Part shown: in pieces, positions 49,955 to 63,798 of the stretch
Numbering within the stretch: position 1 is the first letter of the stretch
Layout of the letters: every line of letters starts with the position of its first letter
NCBI GenBank assembly: GCA_965216565.1
Contig: OZ244170.1
Location: 1,184,001 to 1,248,000, forward strand
DNA length: 64,000 nucleotides
Reading direction: 5' to 3'
DNA from: Bythopirellula sp.
GTDB lineage: Bacteria; Planctomycetota; Planctomycetia; Pirellulales; Lacipirellulaceae
Translations under genes and position numbers: made by a program
The notes under the pieces: generated by a model
Databases searched by the model: none
Told to the model about the DNA's origin: nothing
The model's input: only the letters and a program-made list of their open reading frames with translations

Positions 49955-52351
49955 ATGGCCATTGCAATATCTACTGATATCTATTTGGACGCCAACGCCA
50001 CAACACGCGTACTGCCTGCTGCTGCCGATGAAGCAAAGGCGGCGATGGAGGAGTTGTTCGGAAATCCTAGTAGCTCGCACGTCACAGGCATTCGAGCTCG
50101 ACACATTTTGGAGCAGACCCGCGGATTGGTTCGTTCGCTCTTGGGAGCGGAGGATGGACAAATCATCTTTACTAGTGGCGCAACTGAAGCCATCCAGATG
50201 GCAATCTTTTCTGCGCTGGTCAATCTAAACAAGGATAGTGATTCGCAGGATGCGCTGGGTAGATTTCTCCTTTACGGGGCTACTGAACACAAAGCGGTCC
50301 CACAGGCACTCGGGCACTGGAAGCGAGTGCTGGGGCTCCGCAGTGAACTTCTGGCTATCCCAGTCGACAGCACAGGCAAGCTGGATCTGGAATTCTTGGA
50401 AAATCATGCCGACAGAGCAGACATCGTTTGCACAATGGCGGTGAACAACGAAACCGGAGTAATCCACGATCTAGATGCCATCGAAACCACACTCAGGAGA
50501 TGCAACGAAAGTGTTCCTTGGCTCGTCGATTGTGTTCAGGCACTTGGTAAATTGCCGTTGAATCTATCGTCCACCACCGTCGACTTTGCTTCGATCAGTG
50601 GCCACAAGCTTCACGCTCCGAAAGGGATTGGTGTGCTATATGTACGCGACCAAACCCCTCTAACACCTCTCTTTGCTGGAGGTGGACAAGAAAATGGAGC
50701 ACGATCGGGCACCGAAAATCTCCCCGGAGTGGCAGCGCTATCCGAGGTGTTACGTCATCTAAGTGACGAGCATGACTCGACCTTCAAGGATTTGGAGACA
50801 CTCGACGGATATCGCGAACGTCTGGTGCAGAGCCTCAAGACAGCATTGCCGACGATTGTTTTCAATACCGACTTTCAAAATGCGGTTCCCACGACGATCA
50901 ACTTTTCGGTCGAAGGATTTTCTAGCAAAGAGATCATGGACTTATTCGATGCCGCTGGGATCCGCGTTAGTTCGGGATCGGCGTGTGGTTCGTCATTGCG
51001 TGGCTCTTATGTTCTAGATGCGATGGGGCTGCCGAAATGGCGTAGTGAAGGAGCGATACGCATCTCGTTCGGACTGACGTCGCAAGAAGTCGAGATCGAG
51101 AGCGCATGCAAACAGATTGAAGCTGCCGGCAGGGCACTGCGAGAATCGTGTGTATTGCACGCTGGCAAGTCAGTGGCAAATCCTTTGTCTACCGACGAAA
51201 GATTGATCCAACTGAAAAGCGGCTCGATGTGCACCTGGATTCTTATCGACTCGAACGTGCGTCGTTGTGTGATCATCGATCCAGTCGATGAGCTCTCGGG
51301 ACGAATCGAAAACTATGTGCGTTGCCAGGGGCTGCAGGTTTTTGCCATTCTGGATACTCATCTGCATGTAGATCACCAATCCAACCGCGAGGCACTGCTT
51401 CACTTACTGAAAGATCGACTCGTATTCCCCGATCAGTCTACAGACCCGATGGGATGGCCTGAGAATGCCGACGGGGTCGCGATCCTTGGCGATGGCTCGG
51501 AAGCCGAGTACCTCAACTTCTCCGAAGAGCAGATGCTGGTGCGAACCGGGCTCGCCGGTCATACAATCGACAGCCATGCGTTGCTGTTCGGTTGCCTTTC
51601 ATCAGGAGGCAAACTTGCTCCCAGCGATATTGACTTCGCGTTTACTGGAGACACCGTCCAGATTGGTGGCATAGGCCGGACCGACTTCTCGTCGAGCTCC
51701 ATTGATGCCATGTACGGCTCTTTGCGACGATTGCCACACATCCTGAGCCACAATACACCAATTTGCCCGACGCACGACTATAGGAATGGTTTTGCAACGA
51801 CCCTGGAAACAGAACTTCGGGACAACGATTTTCTAGCACACACAGTCGACCCCTTGGCGCCGATTTCGCTTGAACAGTTTAAGGCCACTAAACAAACACT
51901 CGATGCAAAGATTGATGACGAGAGTAACGAGGAGCTAGTGTGCGGTCTCATCCTTAGCGATAAGGGCCGCCAGACTTCCATCGACATTGCCCCGGCAGAG
52001 AGAGAACATTTTTTCGCCAAGCACAAACAGTCGCGAATCATCGATGTTCGGGAACGTCAAGAGTTTCAGTTTTCGCAAGATTGGAGCTCCGTGGGGTTGG
52101 CTGAGCCTCCGGAGAATGTGCCGCTTACGCGATTAACGGGACTGCTTCAGGAGTTACTTGTAGAGCCTCGACAGCCAACTAGCGGAGATTTGATTTTTGT
52201 TTGCCGTAGTGGAAACCGAAGTGGCATCGCAGCGGACATGTTTCGGAGGATGGGTTTTAAGAATGCCTACCATATTGCGGGAGGACTTGCCCTTGGCATC
52301 CGCCCCAACGGAATTTCGGCGGATAGCGTGGACCATGATTTCATGATTTGA
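49955..52351 (+). CDS. Fusion: cysteine desulfurase (class V PLP) + ETHE1-like metallo-beta-lactamase persulfide dioxygenase + rhodanese
   Basis: YLDANATT, GNPSS, SGHKLHAPKGIG, RSGTEN, VSSGSAC; DTHLHVDH, GHT, FTGDT, GRTDF, CPTHDY; IIDVRE, CRSGNRS. Confidence 0.9.
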   Translation: MAIAISTDIYLDANATTRVLPAAADEAKAAMEELFGNPSSSHVTGIRARHILEQTRGLVRSLLGAEDGQIIFTSGATEAIQMAIFSALVNLNKDSDSQDALGRFLLYGATEHKAVPQALGHWKRVLGLRSELLAIPVDSTGKLDLEFLENHADRADIVCTMAVNNETGVIHDLDAIETTLRRCNESVPWLVDCVQALGKLPLNLSSTTVDFASISGHKLHAPKGIGVLYVRDQTPLTPLFAGGGQENGARSGTENLPGVAALSEVLRHLSDEHDSTFKDLETLDGYRERLVQSLKTALPTIVFNTDFQNAVPTTINFSVEGFSSKEIMDLFDAAGIRVSSGSACGSSLRGSYVLDAMGLPKWRSEGAIRISFGLTSQEVEIESACKQIEAAGRALRESCVLHAGKSVANPLSTDERLIQLKSGSMCTWILIDSNVRRCVIIDPVDELSGRIENYVRCQGLQVFAILDTHLHVDHQSNREALLHLLKDRLVFPDQSTDPMGWPENADGVAILGDGSEAEYLNFSEEQMLVRTGLAGHTIDSHALLFGCLSSGGKLAPSDIDFAFTGDTVQIGGIGRTDFSSSSIDAMYGSLRRLPHILSHNTPICPTHDYRNGFATTLETELRDNDFLAHTVDPLAPISLEQFKATKQTLDAKIDDESNEELVCGLILSDKGRQTSIDIAPAEREHFFAKHKQSRIIDVRERQEFQFSQDWSSVGLAEPPENVPLTRLTGLLQELLVEPRQPTSGDLIFVCRSGNRSGIAADMFRRMGFKNAYHIAGGLALGIRPNGISADSVDHDFMI

Positions 52352-52681
52352 AGCTTGAAGCGATTGGCCAGATTACAGCAGCGCGACGCGCACTTGTTAC
52401 ATCAAGCGAGTTTTTACGACTAGAGCAGAAGAGGAATGAACCTGAAAATGGACGAAACATTGACACCCGTGACCGAGGCAGGTAGGTTCAGTTATTCGCG
52501 TATCGCACCTTTTTCTCGCGCCGTTCCGGAATCTTCTCTCATCGTTGCTGACTCCTCGCAATGGATAGCAAAGTACGCGAGTCGGTTTCAAGCTGCCATT
52601 AAGCCAATGATGATTATCTCCGCTAAAAACACCGTTGCTCCCGCGAAAGAATGTGGGCATTTTCTCAGACGTTGCCGACTG

Positions 52682-53632
52682 ATGACGAACTCTGGCCGAG
52701 GTTTTACGCTAGTAGAATTGCTGGTTGTGATTGCGATTATTGGGGTACTTGTGAGTCTGTTGCTGCCAGCAGTCCAAGCGGCACGCGAGGCCTCCCGACG
52801 AACCAAATGCCTGAATCATATGCGTCAACTAGAATTGGCAGTGATGAATTTTTCGTCCGCGATGGGAGAGGATCTTCCGGACGCTTTGCATAACTACCCC
52901 CCCACGCCACCTGGGAAGACGAAAGCGGAGACCAGCCCGCTTTCGATGCATATTGCGACGATGCCTTACACGGAAAACAAGGCTTTGCGTGAAAAGTACA
53001 CGGCTGTTGCTTCCACATTAGACTTTTTTGAAGTGGCAATTTACAACTGTCCCAGTGATCCTTCGAAGGCGCTAGTTGAGAACCGACCTACAACAACTTC
53101 TTACCTGTCGAATGGAACATTGTTTTCTGACGAGCCAAATTTCCGCAAAGTAACCGATGGTACTTCAAACACTATTGCATTTGCTGAGAGTTACGCTCGC
53201 ACTGAGCTTTCTGGCAACGCAACAGTCACCGTCTACTCAACCCGTTCTGGCAAGGGTGCTGCAACCTTTGCCCATGTATGCAATGGAGAAACGGAGTTCT
53301 GCTTCGACGTCAGAATTGGCCCCCCCGGCGGCGGCTCAGCTGCAACATTTGGTCGTTCTAACCGTCCCGAAATGTCCACGCCAGGCAATTGGCAACCAGA
53401 CTTCAACGCGGCAGCAAACAACGCCCTTGACGATGTGATCGATCCCCCCATCGAATCTAGTCCAGATCCTGAGCAATCAGACATTCGACTTCTCCAAAGC
53501 ATTCACCCGGGCGTCATCAATATGGTGATGCTCGATAATAGCGTTCGTTCTGTATCCGATAGCATCGATCCGATCGTTTTTTGGTCATACGTCACCCCAG
53601 CCGGTGGCGAATCGGTTCGGTTTCTTGAATAA
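52682..53632 (+). CDS. DUF1559 prepilin-type protein
   Basis: [57 protein letters not shown]. Start uncertain (52682 or an upstream ATG). Confidence 0.92.
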
Positions 53633-53655
53633 CATTTGTGAATTTCGAGGATCTC

Positions 53656-55041
53656 ATGCGTAGTACATTGTGTCTTTGTGTCTCCACTTGCCTGCTGAAT
53701 CTGCTTCTCCTTTCCGGATGCAGTGCTGAAGATGCGGGAGTTGGCCAACAAGCGAAGCCGGTTGCCAAGCTTTCTTCCGCTACAGTCGAAGCCGAGAAGC
53801 CCGAGGCTTCCTCCGCGGCAAAGCTCGACGCGCCGAAGAAGGCGACCTTCGCGCCACTCGGCAGTCCAGACAAGGCCAAGTCGGTCAAAGCTGATACTGA
53901 AAAGAAGCCGGTTGTCGCAAAACTGGGTAGCCCAGGAAAGCCGAAGTTCGCACTCAAACGAACTGGTTTTGGCCCCGGCGCTGGAGCGAATGCTCCCGAT
54001 CGTGCTGCCGAAGTGAAGCGATTGATTGCGGCATACGAAAATATAGCCATTCGCTATGCCGACATGATGGTCCTCGCCACGACGCCCGAGCAAGAGGAAG
54101 CCGCTGCCAAGCATTGTCCTTCTGCCAAGGCACTGCGGTCAATCGCCACGTTGTTGGCGCATATAGTGGCAGTCGACGCAACCGACGAACCCGCGATGGA
54201 GGCGCTTTCTTTCTTGGTCAAGTATGTTGGCGTACCAGAAATCGATGCCGTATTTGCCGGAGAATTCAGCGATGGCACTCAAGTCGATCCGATGGCAATG
54301 TTGCTCGAGCACCACGCCAACAATCCCAATATGGTTGGCACACTGCGAAGATTACCACGGAGCAGCAGCGCCGATGCCTTTCTCATTGCTCTCTTTCAGA
54401 AGACATTGAACCCGGATGTCCGCTGGTTGTCGGGAGCCCAACTCATCGCCAGTTTGCGGCGAAACGGTCGGCCCGAGGAGGAGATGGAAAAGGTTGTCGT
54501 CGCGATGTCCGAAGACAGATACCTGGAGGGTGTCAAAGTCGGTCGGTCAAATGCGCGTGACTGGGCGGTGAACAAACTTCGCGAAATACGAACTCTTGGC
54601 ATCGGCAATGTGCTTCCTGAAGTTAGCGGCGAGAAGCTGGAAGGCGGCATCGGCAATGTCTCCGACTACCGCGGCAAGGTTTTGCTGCTGGATGTCTGGA
54701 CCACCTGGTGCGGACCATGTCGGGCGATGACTCCCCACCATATAGAACTGGTGGAACGTCTCAAGGACAAGCCGTTTGCGATGCTAAGTGTGAGTTGCGA
54801 TCGAGACAAGGCGACGCTCGAAGAATTCCTCGCTAACAATTCCATGCCTTGGGATCACTGGTGGGTAGAGGCGGAAAGCGAGTTCAAGAAAACCTTGAAT
54901 ATTGCTTCTTTCCCGACTATCTACGTCCTGGATGCCGAAGGAGTCATTCGGTACAAGAACATCAAGGACGAAGAACTGGATCAGGCGATCGATACGTTGC
55001 TGAGCGAATCTGAGAGTTCGGCTGCTTTGTCAAAGAATTAG
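53656..55041 (+). CDS. Lipoprotein with C-terminal TlpA thioredoxin-like domain
   Basis: Lipobox LSGC, Lys/Ala/Pro-rich linker, helical region, LLDVWTTWCGPC, FPTIYVLDAEGVIR. Confidence 0.88.
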   Translation: MRSTLCLCVSTCLLNLLLLSGCSAEDAGVGQQAKPVAKLSSATVEAEKPEASSAAKLDAPKKATFAPLGSPDKAKSVKADTEKKPVVAKLGSPGKPKFALKRTGFGPGAGANAPDRAAEVKRLIAAYENIAIRYADMMVLATTPEQEEAAAKHCPSAKALRSIATLLAHIVAVDATDEPAMEALSFLVKYVGVPEIDAVFAGEFSDGTQVDPMAMLLEHHANNPNMVGTLRRLPRSSSADAFLIALFQKTLNPDVRWLSGAQLIASLRRNGRPEEEMEKVVVAMSEDRYLEGVKVGRSNARDWAVNKLREIRTLGIGNVLPEVSGEKLEGGIGNVSDYRGKVLLLDVWTTWCGPCRAMTPHHIELVERLKDKPFAMLSVSCDRDKATLEEFLANNSMPWDHWWVEAESEFKKTLNIASFPTIYVLDAEGVIRYKNIKDEELDQAIDTLLSESESSAALSKN

Positions 55042-55086
55042 CCAGCCCTTGGTTTCATCCTTCGCATCATAGTACACTATTGTGCC

Positions 55087-56229
55087 ATGTCACCCAGGTC
55101 GTGCAGATCGATTGCCAGTTTCATAGTTCCGGCAATGATTGTGCTGGCTAGCATCAAGAGCCCCAGCTTAGCGAAGGAATTGCCCAAGTTGGGGAGTTCG
55201 ATGACAGACGAGCAAGCTACCTCGTTCGCCAATCTGGCAATCGAGAACATCGAGACCGAGTTTCCCAACAAACTCTCACACGTTTGGACCGGTAACGAGG
55301 AAGCGCACAATCCGCGCGATCTGCATCCCGTTTTCTATGGCAGCTTCGATTGGCATTCCTCGGTTCATGGTCATTGGATGCTGGTCCGACTATTGAAGCT
55401 CCACCCTCAAGCGGAATTCGCCCCCAAGACGCGCAAACTCTTGGACCGGCAGCTAACTGCCGAAAAGCTCCGCGCTGAAGCTGAGTATTTTCAGCTCAAG
55501 AGCAATCGCACCTACGAACGGATGTACGGCTGGGCCTGGGCACTTCGCATGGCCCAAGAACTGCGTACTTGGGATGACCCGCAGGCACGCCAATGGGCTG
55601 AGAACTTTGCTGTGTTGGAGAAGCAAATTGTCTCGGCAGTCCACGACTATTTACCACGGCTGACGTATCCGATTCGCACGGGCGTCCATCGAGACACTGC
55701 ATTTGCACTCTATCTCATCCTGGACTACGCCAGAGCTGTCGACGATCAACAATTAGTCGACTTGATTTCTAACTACTCAATCGAAAAGTACGCAGGAGAC
55801 AAAGACTATCCCGCCAACTACGAACCCTCGGGGCAAGACTTTTTCTCTTCGGGACTGAATCAAGCAGATCTCATGCGTCGAGTCATGCACCCGGCAGAGT
55901 TCTCGGAGTGGTTCGATCGATTTCTGCCGAAGATCGATAAGCCAGGGTCCACGGCAGCTAAACTATTGCAGCCCGCCACGGTCTCTGACTTATCGGACCC
56001 GCAGATCGTTCATCTGGTTGGGCTCAATTTGTCGAGGGCCTGGAACCAGCGTGGCATTGCCTCCGCGCTGCCGAAGGATGATCAGCGACGTCAGGCTCTC
56101 GAAGAGTCGGCCGCACGGCACTGCGAAGAGGGACTCAAGTACGTCTTTAGCGGACACTACGAAGGAGAGCACTGGCTCGCGACGTTCGCTGTCTATCTGC
56201 TAACCGACGCCGGAATCTCGGGTCCATGA
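55087..56229 (+). CDS. DUF2891 family protein with signal peptide
   Basis: EFPNK, LHPVFYGSFDWHSSVHGHW, YERMYGWAW, PIRTGVH, EPSGQDFFS, HLVGLNLSRAW, YEGEHWLATFA. Confidence 0.88.
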   Translation: MSPRSCRSIASFIVPAMIVLASIKSPSLAKELPKLGSSMTDEQATSFANLAIENIETEFPNKLSHVWTGNEEAHNPRDLHPVFYGSFDWHSSVHGHWMLVRLLKLHPQAEFAPKTRKLLDRQLTAEKLRAEAEYFQLKSNRTYERMYGWAWALRMAQELRTWDDPQARQWAENFAVLEKQIVSAVHDYLPRLTYPIRTGVHRDTAFALYLILDYARAVDDQQLVDLISNYSIEKYAGDKDYPANYEPSGQDFFSSGLNQADLMRRVMHPAEFSEWFDRFLPKIDKPGSTAAKLLQPATVSDLSDPQIVHLVGLNLSRAWNQRGIASALPKDDQRRQALEESAARHCEEGLKYVFSGHYEGEHWLATFAVYLLTDAGISGP

Positions 56230-57458
56230 GTAAGCCGCCGACAAACCGACCCTGGTGGAAGGTGTGCGGACCTGGGTTGTTGGTCACCGCTGCATTTATT
56301 GGCCCTGGCACTGTGGTCACCGCCAGTCGAGCGGGCGCGGAGTTTGGCTACTCCTTGCTCTGGACGCTCCTGTTCGCAACAACGGCTACTGTAATCCTAC
56401 AAGAGATGGCAGCCCGATTGGGGCTAGTTAGCAGGCAGAGCCTGGCTGGTGCCATTCGACAAGCCATATCTCCGGCTCCGCTCCGATGGTGTGCATTGAT
56501 GTTAGTCCTTGTTGCCATCGCGCTGGGCAACGCCGCCTATCAAACAGGCAATCTCACCGGTGGCGCGCTTGGACTTTCGATCATGACCGGTTGGTCGCAA
56601 ACAACATGCGTTTTGGCCATTGGCAGTAGCGTCGTGGTGCTACTGGTCATGGGTAGGACTCAAGGACGTCTCAAAGCTCTGCTAATTGGACTGGTGTTGC
56701 TAATGAGCGTCGCCTTTCTGGTAACAGCCACGGTGGTGCAGCCGCAGCTTGCATCTATCCTCAGCGGGACAGTCGGTTTTCGCATTCCCGAGGGTGCCCA
56801 CCTTACTGCGGTGGCACTCATTGGGACTACTATCGTGCCTTATAACCTCTTTTTGCATGCCACGACCGTTCAACACACCTGGGCGAAAGATACAGATCGT
56901 AAGCAGGCTCTGCGGGAAGCGCGTCTCGATACGTTACTATCAATCTCGCTCGGCGGGATCGTCACCATGTCTATCATCGTAACCTCCGCGGCTGTCTATT
57001 TTCAGCGCCAGCAAATCGACTCAGCTGCCGATTTGGCTCTTCAACTGGAACCGTTGCTGGGCCCCGCTGCCAAACATCTTTTTGCCGCTGGAATTCTAGC
57101 TGCCGGGATCACAAGTGCCATCACCGCACCGTTAGCTGCTGGATATGCCGTGGCTGGGAGTTTCGATTGGAAACGGTACACGCAAGCTCAGGTCACGACC
57201 TTCGTAGCGCTGGTAGTTGCCCTGGTGGGAATGTTTTTCGCGATTTGCTTTGGAGGCAGTCCACAAGCAACAATCATGGTCGCCCAGGCCGCAAATGCCC
57301 TTTTGCTTCCGTTGATAGCCATCTTCTTGCTGGTGGTGATGAATCAATCGTCACTACTTGGCGAACATAGAAATGGAAGAGCTGCCAACTCGCTAGGAGC
57401 AATCGTAGTGATTGTTACGCTAGGACTAGGGCTACTTGCCATGAGGAAGTTGCTCTAG
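56226..57458 (+). CDS. NRAMP-related (MntH/YcsG-like) membrane transporter
   Basis: GPGLLVTAAFIGPGTV, LQEMAARLG, GTTIVPYNLFLH; about 11 TM helices; ATGA overlap with the DUF2891 gene. Confidence 0.85.
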   Translation: MSKPPTNRPWWKVCGPGLLVTAAFIGPGTVVTASRAGAEFGYSLLWTLLFATTATVILQEMAARLGLVSRQSLAGAIRQAISPAPLRWCALMLVLVAIALGNAAYQTGNLTGGALGLSIMTGWSQTTCVLAIGSSVVVLLVMGRTQGRLKALLIGLVLLMSVAFLVTATVVQPQLASILSGTVGFRIPEGAHLTAVALIGTTIVPYNLFLHATTVQHTWAKDTDRKQALREARLDTLLSISLGGIVTMSIIVTSAAVYFQRQQIDSAADLALQLEPLLGPAAKHLFAAGILAAGITSAITAPLAAGYAVAGSFDWKRYTQAQVTTFVALVVALVGMFFAICFGGSPQATIMVAQAANALLLPLIAIFLLVVMNQSSLLGEHRNGRAANSLGAIVVIVTLGLGLLAMRKLL

Positions 57459-57481: not shown

Positions 57482-59224
57482 CTATTCCCGATAAGGCTTT
57501 CCGGATTGATACAGGACTAATCGTCCCTGGATTTCACTTGCGTACTGGTGATGGCCGGCTTCTGTGGCAAATGTGAATGCCCGCTTAGCAGTGGCGACAG
57601 CTTTCTCAAACTGTTTATCCTCGGCATACGCTGCGGCAAGTGTGTCGAGCAGTCCGAAGGCACTTTCTGGTCGCGTTTTTACAGCCATCGAAATAAGTCG
57701 AATCGCTTCCTTGCCGTTGCGGAATTGCTTGTTGGGATGGGTAGAGAGAACCCACGCAAGATTGTTTTGGGCGTCGACGTAATTCTCCTTGAGTTTCATT
57801 GCATCGCGATAGTACGAGATGGCTTTTTCCACATCGCCTCGCTTGAGAAGATGATTTCCGACCCTCAGGTACAATCTATGGATATGAGCTGAATTGCGAA
57901 GCTGTGCACGATTTCGAGTGATGTACTCTGCACTATCGTTGACATAACCTTGATCGACAAGCCTCCAGGCGATGTCGAGCGGAGTAAGAGGCTTGCGATG
58001 AATACGCCAGCGTCCCTCGAACGGCAACGCCGTTGGTGAATCGGCAATATTGGGAAGTTGTGCAGCGTCAGCCAGCACTTGGTCGACTGTCACTGGGCCG
58101 CGGTAGAAAACGGCGAGCCTGCCGGAAGAGTCAATCAGTAGACTTGTGGGAACCGAGAGTGGTTGATGGAAGTCGAATAGGTGCTGATCGACGAGCAACA
58201 ATTTGTCGGCCAAGCCTTCAGTCGCCCAGCCTGAATTCCCTCTGTAGCCAAAAGAGGACAAGAGTTCGGAGGTCGAATTCGGCCCATCAGTCTTAGAAGA
58301 TTCGAGACGATCGACGGACAAGGCAAAGACTGTGATTCCTGCTTCGCGGATCTCGGACTCCCGTTCAGCGATCTCGCGAATTTCCTTTAAACAGGGACGG
58401 CACCAACTGGCCCAAAGATTGAGCAAGACGGGCCCACCCTGTGATGCCTCATCGATCCAGCGGGTTTGCCCCTCGTCGGACTCATAGTCCAACCGAGGCA
58501 GCGGGAGTGGGACCGCGGACACTATCCGCGCTTGCTCGGTTGATTTCTGGTAGGGAGAATTCGATGGTGTGAGCGAACCCGTGCTCTTTGGCGGAGTCCA
58601 TTCTTGGGCATTACCACTGTTTTCAATGAGATGGTAGTGGCGATCGGTTTGCAGGCCTTTGAAGGTTTCCCTCTCTCCTCCTGGCCAGCGAACGGTCACC
58701 TGCTTAATTTCTTCAGCAGCTCCTAATCCGAAGTGCATTCTCTTGCTCGATTGGGCCATGAAGCCTTCGCCAGCCCTCAGCGTTTTAACGAGAGTCGAAT
58801 CCTCTCCCTCAGCTTCGGGCGATTGAAGAGTCACTTCCACCCGGGCACCAATTGCATCGCGATTACAGGTTTTCCCCTCCAATCGAATCGTTACGAAGTG
58901 ATTCGAGGTTTCTAAGTCATTGCGAAGAAACCGGACTTGGGGCCCGGTGCGGTTGGCAGTCCACAGGTCGAGGTCACCATCGAAGTCCCAATCGCATAAC
59001 GCCACGGAGCGTCCATCATCGGGGAAATCAAATCCGCTGACAGAAGAGACGTTAGCAAACTTGCCCTGGCCGAGATTCAGAAAACAACAATGCCGTTCCC
59101 GGCCACTCCAAGATCGTCCTTTGCGTACCATTTGAAACAGCGCAGAAGAGACCGGAATGCCATGATCTCCTTCATCAGCAACACTCGTCGAAACAGTCCT
59201 CGACGGGGCACCACCAAGCGACAC
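57482..59224 (-). CDS. ASPIC/UnbV + TlpA + TPR segment (probably the 3' part of a UGA-recoded gene)
   Basis: DWDFDGDLDL FG-GAP repeat, NRDAIGARV, MHFGLG..VRWPGG (ASPIC/UnbV), NLWASWCRPC, TPRs (AQNNLAW, LDTLAAAYAE). No convincing ribosome-binding site of its own. Confidence 0.8.
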   Translation of the reverse strand: MSLGGAPSRTVSTSVADEGDHGIPVSSALFQMVRKGRSWSGRERHCCFLNLGQGKFANVSSVSGFDFPDDGRSVALCDWDFDGDLDLWTANRTGPQVRFLRNDLETSNHFVTIRLEGKTCNRDAIGARVEVTLQSPEAEGEDSTLVKTLRAGEGFMAQSSKRMHFGLGAAEEIKQVTVRWPGGERETFKGLQTDRHYHLIENSGNAQEWTPPKSTGSLTPSNSPYQKSTEQARIVSAVPLPLPRLDYESDEGQTRWIDEASQGGPVLLNLWASWCRPCLKEIREIAERESEIREAGITVFALSVDRLESSKTDGPNSTSELLSSFGYRGNSGWATEGLADKLLLVDQHLFDFHQPLSVPTSLLIDSSGRLAVFYRGPVTVDQVLADAAQLPNIADSPTALPFEGRWRIHRKPLTPLDIAWRLVDQGYVNDSAEYITRNRAQLRNSAHIHRLYLRVGNHLLKRGDVEKAISYYRDAMKLKENYVDAQNNLAWVLSTHPNKQFRNGKEAIRLISMAVKTRPESAFGLLDTLAAAYAEDKQFEKAVATAKRAFTFATEAGHHQYASEIQGRLVLYQSGKPYRE

Positions 59225-61237
59225 GACCTGCCGCCAAAACAGGGATCACAAGTCACCAGTGTCTTCGGTCGAGATATAACCATTGGCAACCACCAGATCG
59301 TCCCAAGCATCGTTGTTTAAATCTGCGAACAGACTGCTCCAGGCCCAACGGCCCATTTCGACCCCTGCCTCTTTGCTAACGTCGAGAAACTTACCCTGTC
59401 CATCGTTTTGCAGCAGAGTGTTTCCTTTGGCAAATTTAGTGACCAGGTTCTTCGTCTCACTATCGGCGGATGGCATAAACTGTTTTTGCTGGGTAATCCG
59501 GCTGCCTGCCGAAGAGAACATATTGGCCACATAAATGTCCATCCAACCGTCCCGGTTGAAGTCGCCCCAACTGACCGACATACCGGTGTTCGAGTCGACC
59601 ACTCCGGCCTGAGCTGCGATGTTAGTGAACTGTCCCCCGTCATTTCTGTAGAGACAATTCTGGCCAAAGTCGTTGGCAACGTAGAGATCCTGGTCGCCAT
59701 CATTGTCGTAGTCTTCCCAAGCGCAGGATAAGCTGTGACGTCGGTTGTCGGCATCCAGTCCGACTTCTTTCGTGACGTTGGTAAACTGCCACTGCCCATC
59801 GGCTCCCATGTCGTTGCGAAAAAGCAGATTCGGTGCCCCGTCATTCGCATTGGTGAATACAAACTCTTCTCTGTTTGCTGAACTCAGGGCGACGAACTCG
59901 ATGCAAATATATAAGTCCAGATCACCATCTTGATCGTAGTCGACGGCAGTAAACGACTGCATATCGGTGTTACCGGTGGCCAACGTATTGCGAAGCTGGT
60001 AGTTGGCACTTCCATCGTTTTCCATGACTAACAATCCAGCACTTGTGGCAGCAATTAGGTCTTGATCACCGTCATTGTCCAAATCCACGATTAGTGCGCT
60101 GCTGGTATGGTCGAGCCAATCAACTCCTGATTCGTGAGAGCGATCCACTGCTGTGCCGTCTGCCTGCTGAATGAAGAGCCGGTTGGGCAATCCTCCCTGT
60201 TGGCAGACGTAAATGTCGTCTCGGCCATCTCCATTCACGTCCCCCATCGCCATTCCAATGCGCATAAACACGTTGTTCCCATACGCACGACTTAAGCGAG
60301 TGAGCCAATGGTGGTGTCCGTAGACTAATTGTTCATTGAAGGAGTGATTCTCCTGGAGAACGGCCCTGGTGCAGTCGACGAGCCACGGTCCTGCCACATG
60401 AACTTCTTCGAAGTCGGTGGCTCGGATAGAAGTGAGTTGAATAGATTTCTCCCCGTTGCGGACCCAAGTGCAATGCCAGGTGGCTCGCTGCTGGACAGAA
60501 CCCGTCTCGCTGCGCCCGCCTGCTTCAAAGTAGGCGACAGTTTTAACGGATGAGGCACCGGTGTGGACCTGCACAATCTTCACATGGACATGCACGTCGC
60601 TAGCGTCAGCAAAAGGTATGGCCAAATTGCGGAGCGACTCCTCAAGACTTTCGCGGCCTTGAAGTTCGGGCGATTCAGGTTTGGTATTAGCCGCGCGATG
60701 GACAGTTATCTCTTTGCCATCGCTGCCCTTGCTCTTTACTGGAGCCAAATCAGCGGGGCGTAGCTGTCCGCAGGTGATTTCCGAAGACACATATTTCTCT
60801 GGTACTTCGATCGACTCGCGGTTCGCCAAGTCGCCGCACAGCTTAAGAAGGATCTTCTTGGCTTGCTCAGCCACGACTTCTGTCTCCCAGCCATCTTTAC
60901 TGGGGTCGAGCCGAGTGTTAGACAACTGCTGATCGGCCTTGATCGACGCGGTTGCAATCTGCACAGGCGATTCGGCAGTGATCGTTGTAGAGACTTCGGT
61001 CACCTTGCCACTGGACGGACCCATCGCTGAGAGTTTGCGATTGTGTGAACGGTCCGAAGAATTGCTAAACCAAACGAAACAAACACCAATAGTGCCAATA
61101 GCAAGAATAACGAACAGGCACAGTTTTCGAGTTGTAACAGGTGCATTGCTAGACGGATAAGTATCCTTGGAAACTCGTGATGACTTGCGATCTCTTTTCG
61201 AGTCTGAGCGTTTCGATTTGCGTTTGCGACCGGGCAT
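57482..61237 (-). CDS. Putative full-length selenoprotein (1251 aa, Sec664): TM anchor - FG-GAP propeller - ASPIC/UnbV - TlpA - TPR
   Basis: Both ORFs share a frame; the junction reads ACT GGT GAC TTG TGA TCC CTG TTT TGG CGG CAG GTC GTG TCG (TGDL*SLFWRQVVS); SECIS-like hairpin begins 11 nt after the UGA. Confidence 0.65.
59217..59235 (-). promoter_or_regulatory. Candidate bacterial SECIS element
   Basis: mRNA GGCGGCA-GGUCG-UGUCGCU: 7-bp stem (two G-U pairs), loop starting GGU, 17 nt between UGA and loop; shares GCAGGUC with the E. coli fdhF SECIS. Confidence 0.65.
59246..61237 (-). CDS. Membrane-anchored FG-GAP/VCBS repeat (CRTAC1-like) segment (probably the 5' part of a UGA-recoded gene)
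   Basis: Basic N-terminus plus TM helix; repeats GDVNGDGRDDIY, DLDNDGDQDL, DYDQDGDLDLY, DYDNDGDQDLY, GDFNRDGWMDIY, DLNNDAWDDL; ends in TGA. Confidence 0.88.
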   Translation of the reverse strand: MPGRKRKSKRSDSKRDRKSSRVSKDTYPSSNAPVTTRKLCLFVILAIGTIGVCFVWFSNSSDRSHNRKLSAMGPSSGKVTEVSTTITAESPVQIATASIKADQQLSNTRLDPSKDGWETEVVAEQAKKILLKLCGDLANRESIEVPEKYVSSEITCGQLRPADLAPVKSKGSDGKEITVHRAANTKPESPELQGRESLEESLRNLAIPFADASDVHVHVKIVQVHTGASSVKTVAYFEAGGRSETGSVQQRATWHCTWVRNGEKSIQLTSIRATDFEEVHVAGPWLVDCTRAVLQENHSFNEQLVYGHHHWLTRLSRAYGNNVFMRIGMAMGDVNGDGRDDIYVCQQGGLPNRLFIQQADGTAVDRSHESGVDWLDHTSSALIVDLDNDGDQDLIAATSAGLLVMENDGSANYQLRNTLATGNTDMQSFTAVDYDQDGDLDLYICIEFVALSSANREEFVFTNANDGAPNLLFRNDMGADGQWQFTNVTKEVGLDADNRRHSLSCAWEDYDNDGDQDLYVANDFGQNCLYRNDGGQFTNIAAQAGVVDSNTGMSVSWGDFNRDGWMDIYVANMFSSAGSRITQQKQFMPSADSETKNLVTKFAKGNTLLQNDGQGKFLDVSKEAGVEMGRWAWSSLFADLNNDAWDDLVVANGYISTEDTGDL

Positions 61238-61507: not shown

Positions 61508-62374
61508 ATGAGAGTACTGAGTTACCTGACCGCGATTGCGGTGACAATGATTCTAGTTTCGGGGGCATCCGCAGCGTTGGTGAATGAGTGGGATTATAAT
61601 GCCGGACCTCCGTTTTCAACGGACGCATCGACTGGTAGTGGAGAGTCCAGCGGATTTGCGATCCCAATTTTCGGTTTCCCGCTTAACGATGGATCGTCCG
61701 ATGATCCAGCAAGTGTTTCTCCCTGGGACGGAACCAGTCAGAATGGTGCCGCAACGAGGTCAGCTCCCTCGTCCAACAATGGTGATCCGAATGGCCCTGC
61801 GAGTGGACTTGCGATAGCGCAGTGGAATACAAGCACACCGCAGTCGGATATCGTCTTCACTTGGGACATGGTATCTGGTTACCGATCGAGTCGCTTTTAC
61901 CAGATCTCCGTCACCACAGATGGTGTCAATTACAACCCAGTTTCCGGTGGTGTAGGTACTGGCTCGACTGTTGCTGGTGTCGGTAGTGCGACGGTGGACT
62001 CTGATGGTTTGATCACAGTGCTCTTTGATGACGGTTTTGTACCGGGTAATGGTAAGCCTGTGGGAGCCCCTGCGGTCGATTACCTGACTGACCTGTCTTA
62101 CGCTTTTCCTACTGGTTCTGCGGTCGAATCAAACCCTGACTTTGGTATCCAGATTGCGGCTATCCACGATCCTAACGGAAGCGACTACGTCTCTTCCTTC
62201 GCGGGTACTACCGAAATGGGTGATCCGAATAGTGGCTTTATCAGAAGTTCCGGATCAGGTGGTGGATCGACGCGATACGACATGGTGAGCATCTCGGGCA
62301 TCCCCGAGCCTGCGACCCTAGCATTGGCTGCTTGTGGCGCTGCATTCGCCTGTACAAGACGCCGACGTAGATAG
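61508..62374 (+). CDS. PEP-CTERM protein
   Basis: Signal peptide (ASA-A); Ser/Gly/Thr-rich; IPEPATLALAACGAAFACTRRRRR; three DPN motifs. Confidence 0.9.
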   Translation: MRVLSYLTAIAVTMILVSGASAALVNEWDYNAGPPFSTDASTGSGESSGFAIPIFGFPLNDGSSDDPASVSPWDGTSQNGAATRSAPSSNNGDPNGPASGLAIAQWNTSTPQSDIVFTWDMVSGYRSSRFYQISVTTDGVNYNPVSGGVGTGSTVAGVGSATVDSDGLITVLFDDGFVPGNGKPVGAPAVDYLTDLSYAFPTGSAVESNPDFGIQIAAIHDPNGSDYVSSFAGTTEMGDPNSGFIRSSGSGGGSTRYDMVSISGIPEPATLALAACGAAFACTRRRRR

Positions 62375-62478
62375 TCTCCACCCATCAACGGTGAGTCTTG
62401 CAATTGAGAATTCGCCGTCTGGAACGCTGTTCAAGGCGTTCCAGGCGGCGTTCATACATGGACGGAGAGGACCGAGTG

Positions 62479-63798
62479 ATGTTTCTTCAAGCTTTTCGTA
62501 CGGCAACCATTCTAGCCGTGGCTGTCATCGCCACGATCCTTGCCAGTTCTGCAGTTCAGGCGGCTGTCACGTTTGATTGGGCTACCATTGGGGACCCCAA
62601 CAACGCTGCCGATACGCTAGTGATGAACAAAGGTCCTTGCACCAATGGCGCTTCGATAAGCTGCACGGGTGATGGCTCGACTGGATATGGCTCGGTCGGA
62701 TATACGTACCGGATTGCCAAGCATCACGTGACCATGTCTCAATACACGGAGTTTCTGAACACGGTGGACCCAACCGGGTCGAATTCTCTGGAACTCTACG
62801 ACGATCGAATGGAACAAAGGGTGCATCCCGTCTCTTTCTTGCCAATTCCGGCGGAGACTGGTGGTATCGATTTCGATCCGAATGCTTCTCAGGGTGCTAA
62901 ATATACAACGAAGAGTGGCCAGGAAAACTATCCTGCGACCTGGGTCAGTTGGGTTAGTGCGGCTCGGTTTGTCAACTGGCTGAGCAATGGCCAAGGCGCT
63001 GGCGATACCGAAAGCGGAGTCTACAATAGCCTGCCAACAACAGCGTCTGACCCTGTCCCAAGTAGAGACCCTGGGGCGCAGTTCTTTTTGCCGAGCGATG
63101 ATGAGTTCTACAAAGCTGCCTATTACAATCCAACGCTGAACGGCGGCACGGGTGGGTACACAGAATACGGTACCGGCAATAGTCCCCCGACGATTGGCGA
63201 CCCTAATTCAACGCCAGGTGGTGCCAACTATGCCCAAACTGATGGGGTGGATGGCCACAGTGGCGATACCTATTGGCAGAATAACTTTAGTAGCTACAAC
63301 AGCAATCTAGACCACCTTACGGAAGTGGGGGCGTATTCCAACGCGACCAGTCACTATGGGTTATTCGACGTAGATGGGACGGCTTACCAATGGATGGAGA
63401 CCACCCGTCAGAATCAGTTTGGTTCTCAAGATTTACCGATCTACCGCGGCGGCTCCTGGTGGCATGCGTCCGACGGCAATGGTGCAGCCTTCCGCAATAC
63501 TCAATTCTTTGCGACTGGATCTTCAAGCCTGTCCAGCAATTACCATAGTTTTAGAATTGCCTCCTTAGTCCCAGCACTGGCAGGGGACTTCGATATGGAT
63601 GGCGATGTCGATGGCCTGGATTTCCTTGATTGGCAGATAAACAATCGGACGCAGTCTGAACTCATGGATTGGGAAGCGAATTACGGCATGACCCTCCAGA
63701 CTGCTGCGGTAAGTGCTGTTCCTGAGCCCACCGGTCTTGTCCTGCTAGCCACCAGCTTCGCCATGCTTTGTCTTTCCCGACGGCAAAGATGTGCATGA
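62479..63798 (+). CDS. PEP-CTERM protein with formylglycine-generating-enzyme-like (SUMF1/EgtB/PvdO) domain and dockerin-like EF-hand
   Basis: GYGSVGYTYRI, SAARFVNWL, LPSDDEFYKAAYY, SHYGLFD, RGGSW, FRIAS; GDFDMDGDVDGLDFLDWQ; VPEPTGL plus TM helix; start after GGAGAGG. Confidence 0.9.
   Translation: MFLQAFRTATILAVAVIATILASSAVQAAVTFDWATIGDPNNAADTLVMNKGPCTNGASISCTGDGSTGYGSVGYTYRIAKHHVTMSQYTEFLNTVDPTGSNSLELYDDRMEQRVHPVSFLPIPAETGGIDFDPNASQGAKYTTKSGQENYPATWVSWVSAARFVNWLSNGQGAGDTESGVYNSLPTTASDPVPSRDPGAQFFLPSDDEFYKAAYYNPTLNGGTGGYTEYGTGNSPPTIGDPNSTPGGANYAQTDGVDGHSGDTYWQNNFSSYNSNLDHLTEVGAYSNATSHYGLFDVDGTAYQWMETTRQNQFGSQDLPIYRGGSWWHASDGNGAAFRNTQFFATGSSSLSSNYHSFRIASLVPALAGDFDMDGDVDGLDFLDWQINNRTQSELMDWEANYGMTLQTAAVSAVPEPTGLVLLATSFAMLCLSRRQRCA

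Follow-up and report, generated by a model that had tools for sequence, protein, structure and literature searches.

Does the UGA in the middle of a long planctomycete gene end one protein, or is it read through to make a larger one? The question is raised by a 64,000-nucleotide stretch of Bythopirellula sp. (contig OZ244170.1, positions 1,184,001 to 1,248,000; here 'the window' refers to this whole stretch), in which two open reading frames (ORFs), 61237-59246 and 59224-57482, share one frame on the minus strand. With the TGA at 59248-59246 read as selenocysteine (Sec, U), the gene at 57482..61237 (-) becomes one 1251-aa frame with a single recoded codon, U664, in the context ISTEDTGDL-U-SLFWRQVVS. 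A first-pass annotation of the window had proposed exactly this, with recoding directed by a Sec insertion sequence (SECIS) hairpin inside the ORF. Every computational test that we ran supports the proposal, and from the sequence evidence we put the probability that UGA664 is decoded as Sec, to give one 1251-aa selenoprotein, at about 0.92.

The junction is laid out as first described. Seven sense codons lie between the TGA and the next called start, a GTG at 59224, and by eye no purine-rich ribosome-binding run is found within 30 nt upstream of this GTG, whereas such a run precedes the ATG at 61237. However, adjacency of this kind is not evidence for recoding, because ORF-stop-ORF pairs are common in this genome: 46 in-frame pairs have at least 400 codons on each side, and 11 of the 46 are parted by TGA. 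The evidence is conservation. A coding-potential scan of the genome, which was noisy, did not place the genes of this selenoprotein family among its top 60. An alternative genetic code was considered and rejected, since TGA is a normal stop in this genome, ending 450 of 1586 long ORFs.

The TGA itself was checked against other sequencing data. Contigs from two other studies bridge it with 13 differing letters out of 1288 and 16 out of 556, with 0 gaps, and none of the 40 differences listed (of 50 in the bridging contigs) falls on 59246-59248; all bridging runs are contigs, and two identical ones may be the source sample. No RNA run was listed among the sequencing data.

All three copies of the gene in the genome have the TGA. 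The two paralogues, at 53% and 41% identity, carry it in the same column together with the identical 19 hairpin bases. Within the bacterial family, 31 loci were examined and 30 span the column, with TGA in 30 of 30; in a sample of the class, 15 of 401 genomes hold the gene, with a single TGA in 31 of 31 matches. The anticipated conservation of TGA at this column in several genomes is thus observed. A scan of species genomes, from which the best 80 of 335 confirmed stretches (79 loci) were kept, showed TGA forms under the record titles Planctomycetota, Verrucomicrobiota, Kiritimatiellia, Gemmatimonadales and Acidobacteria, and sense forms in Acidobacteriota only. De-duplication left 85 TGA rows and 20 sense rows, after 13 rows without W-R at +4/+5 were dropped (ten distant paralogue matches, one double-TGA copy, one frameshifted copy and one gene of a second subfamily described below).

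Downstream of the UGA, a hairpin can fold from +11, as had been claimed, with a stem of 7 bp, a loop beginning with GG and a spacing of 17 nt. The criteria for bacterial SECIS elements (bSECIS), as set out in PMC13188914, are a loop of 3-9 nt, a stem of 4-16 bp, a G within the first two loop positions, a spacing of 16-37 nt and an energy of -7.5 kcal/mol or lower. The window hairpin lies within every range, folding as a 32-nt piece at -9.4 kcal/mol (z -2.1, with 5 of 200 shuffles as good). The energy of -7.5 kcal/mol is reached by 77 of the 85 TGA rows and by 1 of the 20 sense rows. The five core pairs are intact in 83 of the 85 distinct TGA rows, for which peptides and genome codon usage predict about 3.2 by chance, and in 0 of the 20 sense-codon relatives; the sense group is one lineage, so that the contrast between TGA and sense hairpins is not independent of phylogeny.

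Covariation points the same way. Where the Arg codon of the hairpin faces U, it is CGG or CGA; where it faces C (7 rows), it is CGG without exception. Two rows are altered on both sides of one pair. In a pairing test on 28 rows, which were chosen partly for variation and whose relatedness inflates such tests, 97% of cells pair, 0 of 500 shuffles are as high, and slid registers reach 68.5% at most. The likeness to the Escherichia coli fdhF element pointed out at first holds as well, with the same 7-mer at +16 in fdhF and at +15 here. SelB would bind this hairpin 3′ of the UGA and bring Sec-tRNA, yielding the single 1251-aa chain. Incidentally, an Rfam scan of 59100-59400 found no relevant family, and a loose SECIS scan of the genome is unspecific, as 167 of 3763 TGA sites pass, among which the three paralogues lead by frame length.

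The genome has the machinery for this decoding. A tRNA-Sec gene adjoins selA, selB and a fused selD in one cluster, and each sel gene scores above its curated cut-off. SelD (L011:9223-11433, in our locus labels) has a pyridine nucleotide-disulfide oxidoreductase domain fused to its N-terminus; it retains the CxxK motif, scoring over the cut-off of the selD model and under that of the 'not SelD' fusion model. Two Fdh-like genes found in the genome have no internal stop.

The gene and the machinery also occur together. Of 120 genomes of the bacterial family, 22 carry the gene, and 21 of these 22 have a selB match, compared with 30 of 120 overall, the remaining one having selA. Conversely, the gene is present in 21 of the 30 selB-matching genomes versus 1 of the 90 without a selB match. 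In the class sample, a strong selA match is found in 15 of 15 gene-bearing genomes versus 220 of 401 overall. In 5 of the 21 genomes, selB and a copy of the gene are no more than about 15 kb apart; the present genome is not among them. Tandem arrays were also seen, with four TGA copies at G076:C2:376895-409185, beside a selB fragment, and three at G411:C76:18501-27271.

Another idea is that Trp or Cys is inserted at the UGA, or that the UGA stems from an assembly error or a recent nonsense mutation. Damaged-looking copies do exist: at L034:1017 a second TGA replaces a conserved Trp codon, and at L116:6234 a frameshift lies just before the UGA; the two copies are pseudogenes or assembly errors. 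However, among 120 listed homologue rows none has Trp at the column, the sole UCA anticodon among the 48 tRNAs found in the genome is that of tRNA-Sec, and the same TGA persists across proteins of 37-64% identity and in the contigs of other studies. Such a misreading or error is hardly credible.

The product makes sense as one chain. The junction region is matched by 1113 proteins of 688-2190 aa, and at least 120 homologues (the best 120 of the 1113) are single chains, almost all of them extending across the junction. A model of residues 100-1251, built with 127 sequences, has a pLDDT of 92.5 and a pTM of 0.92. It matches murine CRTAC1 (PDB 9etn) with a Foldseek E of 5e-26, and with Z 40.4 and rmsd 2.2 over 459 residues spanning both halves. 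The propeller has seven Asp-rich loops, six before the UGA and one after, so that a stop would leave the propeller open. The FG-GAP series thus runs past the stop into the ASPIC/UnbV domain (PF07593, residues 795-868), as the first-pass annotation had it; the thioredoxin domain with WCRPC that it named was also recovered, with CRPC at 946-949 and a fold match to ResA and TlpA. Pfam hits over the cut-off are the FG-GAP repeats, ASPIC/UnbV and AhpC/TSA (917-982).

In the model, the helix that starts with U664 is part of an insertion between two blade-6 strands, and the next strand starts at Cys717. From FG-GAP topology, the insertion presumably lies on the propeller face opposite the Asp loops. 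A hydrophobic segment comparable to that near the N-terminus (Table 1) is found in 54 of 67 long TGA rows. The propeller, ASPIC/UnbV, thioredoxin and TPR domains would be extracytoplasmic, on a chain probably anchored in the inner membrane.

The single chain has to be weighed against a true stop, with two genes whose products rebuild the propeller and a conserved RNA element that serves translation of the second gene. In-frame downstream starts such as the GTG at 59224 would permit this, and TGA is an ordinary stop in the genome, as said above. On the other hand, neither TAA nor TAG ever occupies the column in the 85 distinct junction rows, and no frame drift is seen. The W-R-Q between the stop and GTG 59224 is conserved as protein in single-chain homologues. 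The gene is limited to genomes with sel genes in both samples, and a signal or anchor is present on the first half only. We consider two genes very improbable.

A second subfamily provides support, largely independent, for recoding at this column, to judge from sequence comparison. Its gene beside L077 (L077:3803-6835, -) shares 28% identity across the junction, and its TGA stands in the same column, within the motif PDG-U-x-C. The subfamily (rows L123-L140) occurs in 12 of 401 phylum genomes, with a single TGA in 15 of 15 matches, and Cys stands two residues after U in 17 of its 18 distinct rows. Its hairpin, at +15..+32, differs in sequence; all six pairs are intact in 16 of 18 rows with several pair types, and not all loops begin with G in the energy-minimum fold. 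The L077 genome, the one subfamily-2 genome examined for sel genes, has selA. A metagenome scan for this subfamily gave 10 loci, of which 3 are clean TGA forms, 2 look frameshifted and 5 are distant.

We conceived that, given Sec, the protein could be a self-recycling thiol/selenol oxidoreductase with a Sec664-Cys717-CxxC relay, a function that we judge to have an even chance of being right. Sec664, at a helix N-terminus on the face opposite the Asp-rich loops, would attack an oxidised substrate, and Cys717 would resolve it as a selenenylsulfide. The fused CxxC domain would then re-reduce the Sec-Cys717 pair with electrons of a DsbD-type membrane carrier, while the TPRs may bind a partner or client. 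An extracytoplasmic relay is suggested because Cys717 and CxxC are conserved with TGA and the genome carries a DsbD transmembrane domain. Among the TGA rows, Cys717 is present in 80 of 85 and the CxxC in 79 of the 79 that cover it. The sense rows nested among them keep Cys717 in 10 of 21 and CxxC in 9 of 21, and the non-Cys sense rows in 7 of 134 and 10 of 129, respectively (the 21 nested rows overlap the other sets). The vicinal Cys pair of the first-pass annotation survives in part: its first member is kept as just described, but Cys717 and Cys718 occur together in only 44 of the 85.

Several observations weigh against Sec decoding or against the relay. Cys, the residue expected at the column in Sec-free homologues, is a minority there: 140 sense-codon rows have Cys in 6, Ala in 52, Ser in 48 and Gly in 19, and so the residue is dispensable in a large clade. 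Among the best 120 of the 1113 homologues, the commonest residues are Ala (48), Ser (37), Gly (15), Glu (6), Cys (6) and Asp (4), with Cys in 3 of the 4 best-scoring homologues listed. Five TGA rows, including all three from Acidobacteriota, have no Cys717, and the Cys717 and CxxC correlations are partly phylogenetic, as most sense rows form one Acidobacteriota-rich clade. Subfamily 2 has no thioredoxin domain in its read-through frames. Among TGA-bearing genomes reached through loci, which lie outside Planctomycetota and for which completeness is not given, 3 of 5 have selB above its cut-off and 3 of 4 have selA above its own; in sense-codon genomes selB is found in 2 of 5, with G496 holding both forms and counted in both sets. 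As for the hairpin, it is not the minimum-energy fold of the window copy in 60-nt context (z +0.48), and 60-nt z-scores are not significant in five copies. Folding energy, being weak, was rejected as stand-alone evidence.

The tolerance of the column leaves room for other roles of an inserted Sec. One is non-catalytic, in which Sec takes part in metal or small-ligand binding or in a structural Se-S bridge on a lectin- or adhesin-like propeller. Fold matches beyond CRTAC1 are integrins, lectins and lyases, none of them oxidoreductases, the column accepts Ala, Ser, Gly, Glu and Asp, and Nramp-like and DUF2891 genes adjoin the gene on the opposite strand. Those neighbours, however, are not conserved across loci, and a binding role does not account for a CxxC that no covered TGA row lacks and that erodes once Sec has been lost, or for the UxC of subfamily 2. 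We regard this role as rather unlikely.

Another possibility is that the UGA-SECIS pair acts mainly as a selenium-dependent expression gate and that the identity of residue 664 matters little. When selenium is lacking, a 663-aa fragment without the end of blade 6 and blade 7 would be made and then lost. This would agree with 134 of 140 sense homologues being non-Cys at the column, and with UGA loss to varied residues several times in a quick tree (below). In 80 of 85 TGA rows the Leu codon before the UGA (59249-59251) is TTG, a codon with a genome usage of 22.6%, and this suggests tuned read-through. A pure gate, however, would need neither a Cys717 and a CxxC that track the UGA nor the Cys at +2 in subfamily 2, and we find it improbable. 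The relay remains our preferred function for the Sec chain.

The quick tree contains 143 of 221 rows, with sense rows thinned, and is midpoint-rooted with no outgroup and no clade test. TGA rows lie on either side of the midpoint root. The sister group of the large sense clade consists of three Acidobacteriota TGA rows, and 21 sense rows are scattered within the TGA-rich half. UGA has been lost to Cys, Ser, Gly, Ala, Glu, Gln, His and Asp in this tree, several times and at scattered positions. The pattern fits an ancestral Sec with repeated loss.

Two further candidates were seen elsewhere in the present genome (G000:C1). A Prx-like UxxC lipoprotein with an in-frame TGA and its own clean hairpin (1636968-1637606, +) is a known type of selenoprotein. 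An FG-GAP lipoprotein frame with a TGA at 3110400 (-) comprises 153+1+353 codons; it has a U-C motif, and its hairpin is weak.

Taken together, CRTAC1-like FG-GAP propellers might be an unrecognised superfamily of selenoenzymes, in the planctomycete envelope and in several other phyla. It would have at least two subfamilies sharing the Sec column: one reads DL-U-S and has a distant Cys and a fused thioredoxin, the other reads PDG-U-x-C and lacks thioredoxin. A third FG-GAP type would carry a UC motif. Sec would look ancestral and repeatedly lost to non-Cys residues, and propellers would make up most selenoproteins found in the present genome. This broad reading stands, in our view, about evenly between right and wrong.

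The surroundings of the gene are variable; clustering of neighbourhoods at 84 loci gave no conserved operon, and its largest clusters consist of alternative frames of the same gene. In the window, a 798-aa fusion of cysteine desulfurase-like, metallo-beta-lactamase-fold and rhodanese domains (49955-52351, +) lies 5 kb from the gene, and it could have a role in sulfur or selenium mobilisation. Genes for a DUF1559 prepilin-like protein, a TlpA-like CxxC lipoprotein, a DUF2891 protein and an Nramp-like protein (52436-57458, +) converge on the 3′ end of the gene. Upstream and divergent, at 61508-63798 (+), are a PEP-CTERM-type protein, relatives of which stand beside 2 other loci of the selenoprotein family, and an FGE-sulfatase-domain protein. 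The features of the gene are listed in Table 1.

Table 1. Features of the 1251-codon gene, in window coordinates.
Feature	Position	Strand	Basis or remark
Whole gene, 1251 codons, one recoded UGA	57482..61237	-	Single-chain homologues
Hydrophobic segment, residues 43-61, after basic N-terminus; probable inner-membrane anchor	61055..61111	-	Mean hydropathy 2.65 over 19 residues
N-terminal alpha/beta domain, ~residues 100-283	60389..60940	-	No Pfam match
FG-GAP beta-propeller, ~residues 325-773	58919..60265	-	Pfam PF13517/PF01839, conserved Asp sets, model, CRTAC1 9etn match
In-frame UGA, predicted Sec664, first residue of helix inserted in sixth blade	59246..59248	-	
Candidate SECIS hairpin, +11 to +29 after UGA, 5-nt apical loop from +18	59217..59235	-	
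Cys717-Cys718	59084..59089	-	Cys717 is candidate resolving cysteine; conservation
ASPIC/UnbV domain, residues 795-868	58634..58855	-	PF07593, E 1.8e-20, over cut-off
TlpA/ResA-like thioredoxin domain, ~residues 903-1052	58082..58531	-	Profile, fold match
CRPC motif, residues 946-949	58391-58402	-	Within thioredoxin domain
TPR repeats, ~residues 1110-1232	57542..57910	-	Pfam under cut-off, model

The first-pass annotation did not recognise a characterised selenoprotein family here, and our searches agree. FG-GAP, CRTAC1 and ASPIC/UnbV have no row among the 119 families of Table 1 in PMC13188914 (2026), within the accessible part of that paper, and neither the chain nor the junction reaches an NCBIfam cut-off. 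None of these three names occurs in the text and 4 supplements of deep-Sep (PMC12013277), in the searched text and 1 supplement of BSepDB (PMC13326102) or in the main text of SelCysML (PMC13745706). A full-text literature search found no paper linking Sec with CRTAC1, ASPIC/UnbV or FG-GAP, although the candidate lists of Deng et al. 2026 could include the family. Thus the gene is very probably a member of an uncatalogued CRTAC1-like selenoprotein family that uses the known bacterial decoding mechanism.

If so, the fold of this large, multi-copy selenoprotein family would be new to the catalogue checked. Redox chemistry on a CRTAC1-like propeller would be indicated, and many genes now split by gene callers would be corrected. 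The family departs from the Sec/Cys-pair rule of most selenoprotein searches, which may explain why it was overlooked. Its close association with the Sec machinery in the sampled bacterial family may help to explain why Sec decoding is retained.

Among known systems, SOQ1 of Arabidopsis offers a purely functional analogy for an intramolecular thioredoxin relay. According to bioRxiv 10.1101/2024.11.01.621559, this membrane protein has a Trx-like domain that hands electrons on to a second Cys pair of its own chain and thereby acts as a methionine sulfoxide reductase. Its propeller is of the NHL rather than the FG-GAP type, it has no Sec, and its catalytic pair lies in a C-terminal domain. With the extracytoplasmic thioredoxins of the TlpA/ResA type, the fused domain here shares the CxxC, and it has fold matches to both ResA and TlpA. 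It differs in being internal; it is without Sec, scores below all NCBIfam cut-offs, and its reductase activity is putative.

With fdhF-like genes decoded through SelB and SECIS, our gene shares the in-ORF UGA, a 5-nt loop starting with G 17 nt downstream, and the sel genes. It differs in its host, a propeller instead of a molybdoenzyme or a Trx-fold Sec site, and in that Sec lies outside CxxU or UxxC and sense homologues mostly have Ala, Ser or Gly. The long lower stem of the fdhF type was not found here. Finally, CRTAC1 (PDB 9etn) has in common with our gene an FG-GAP propeller followed by ASPIC/UnbV in one chain, at 21% identity over 459 residues. To this plan the present protein adds an N-terminal domain, an anchor and fused thioredoxin and TPR domains, together with the ~60-residue insertion that bears the predicted Sec, most of which is absent from the short propeller paralogues of the same genome.

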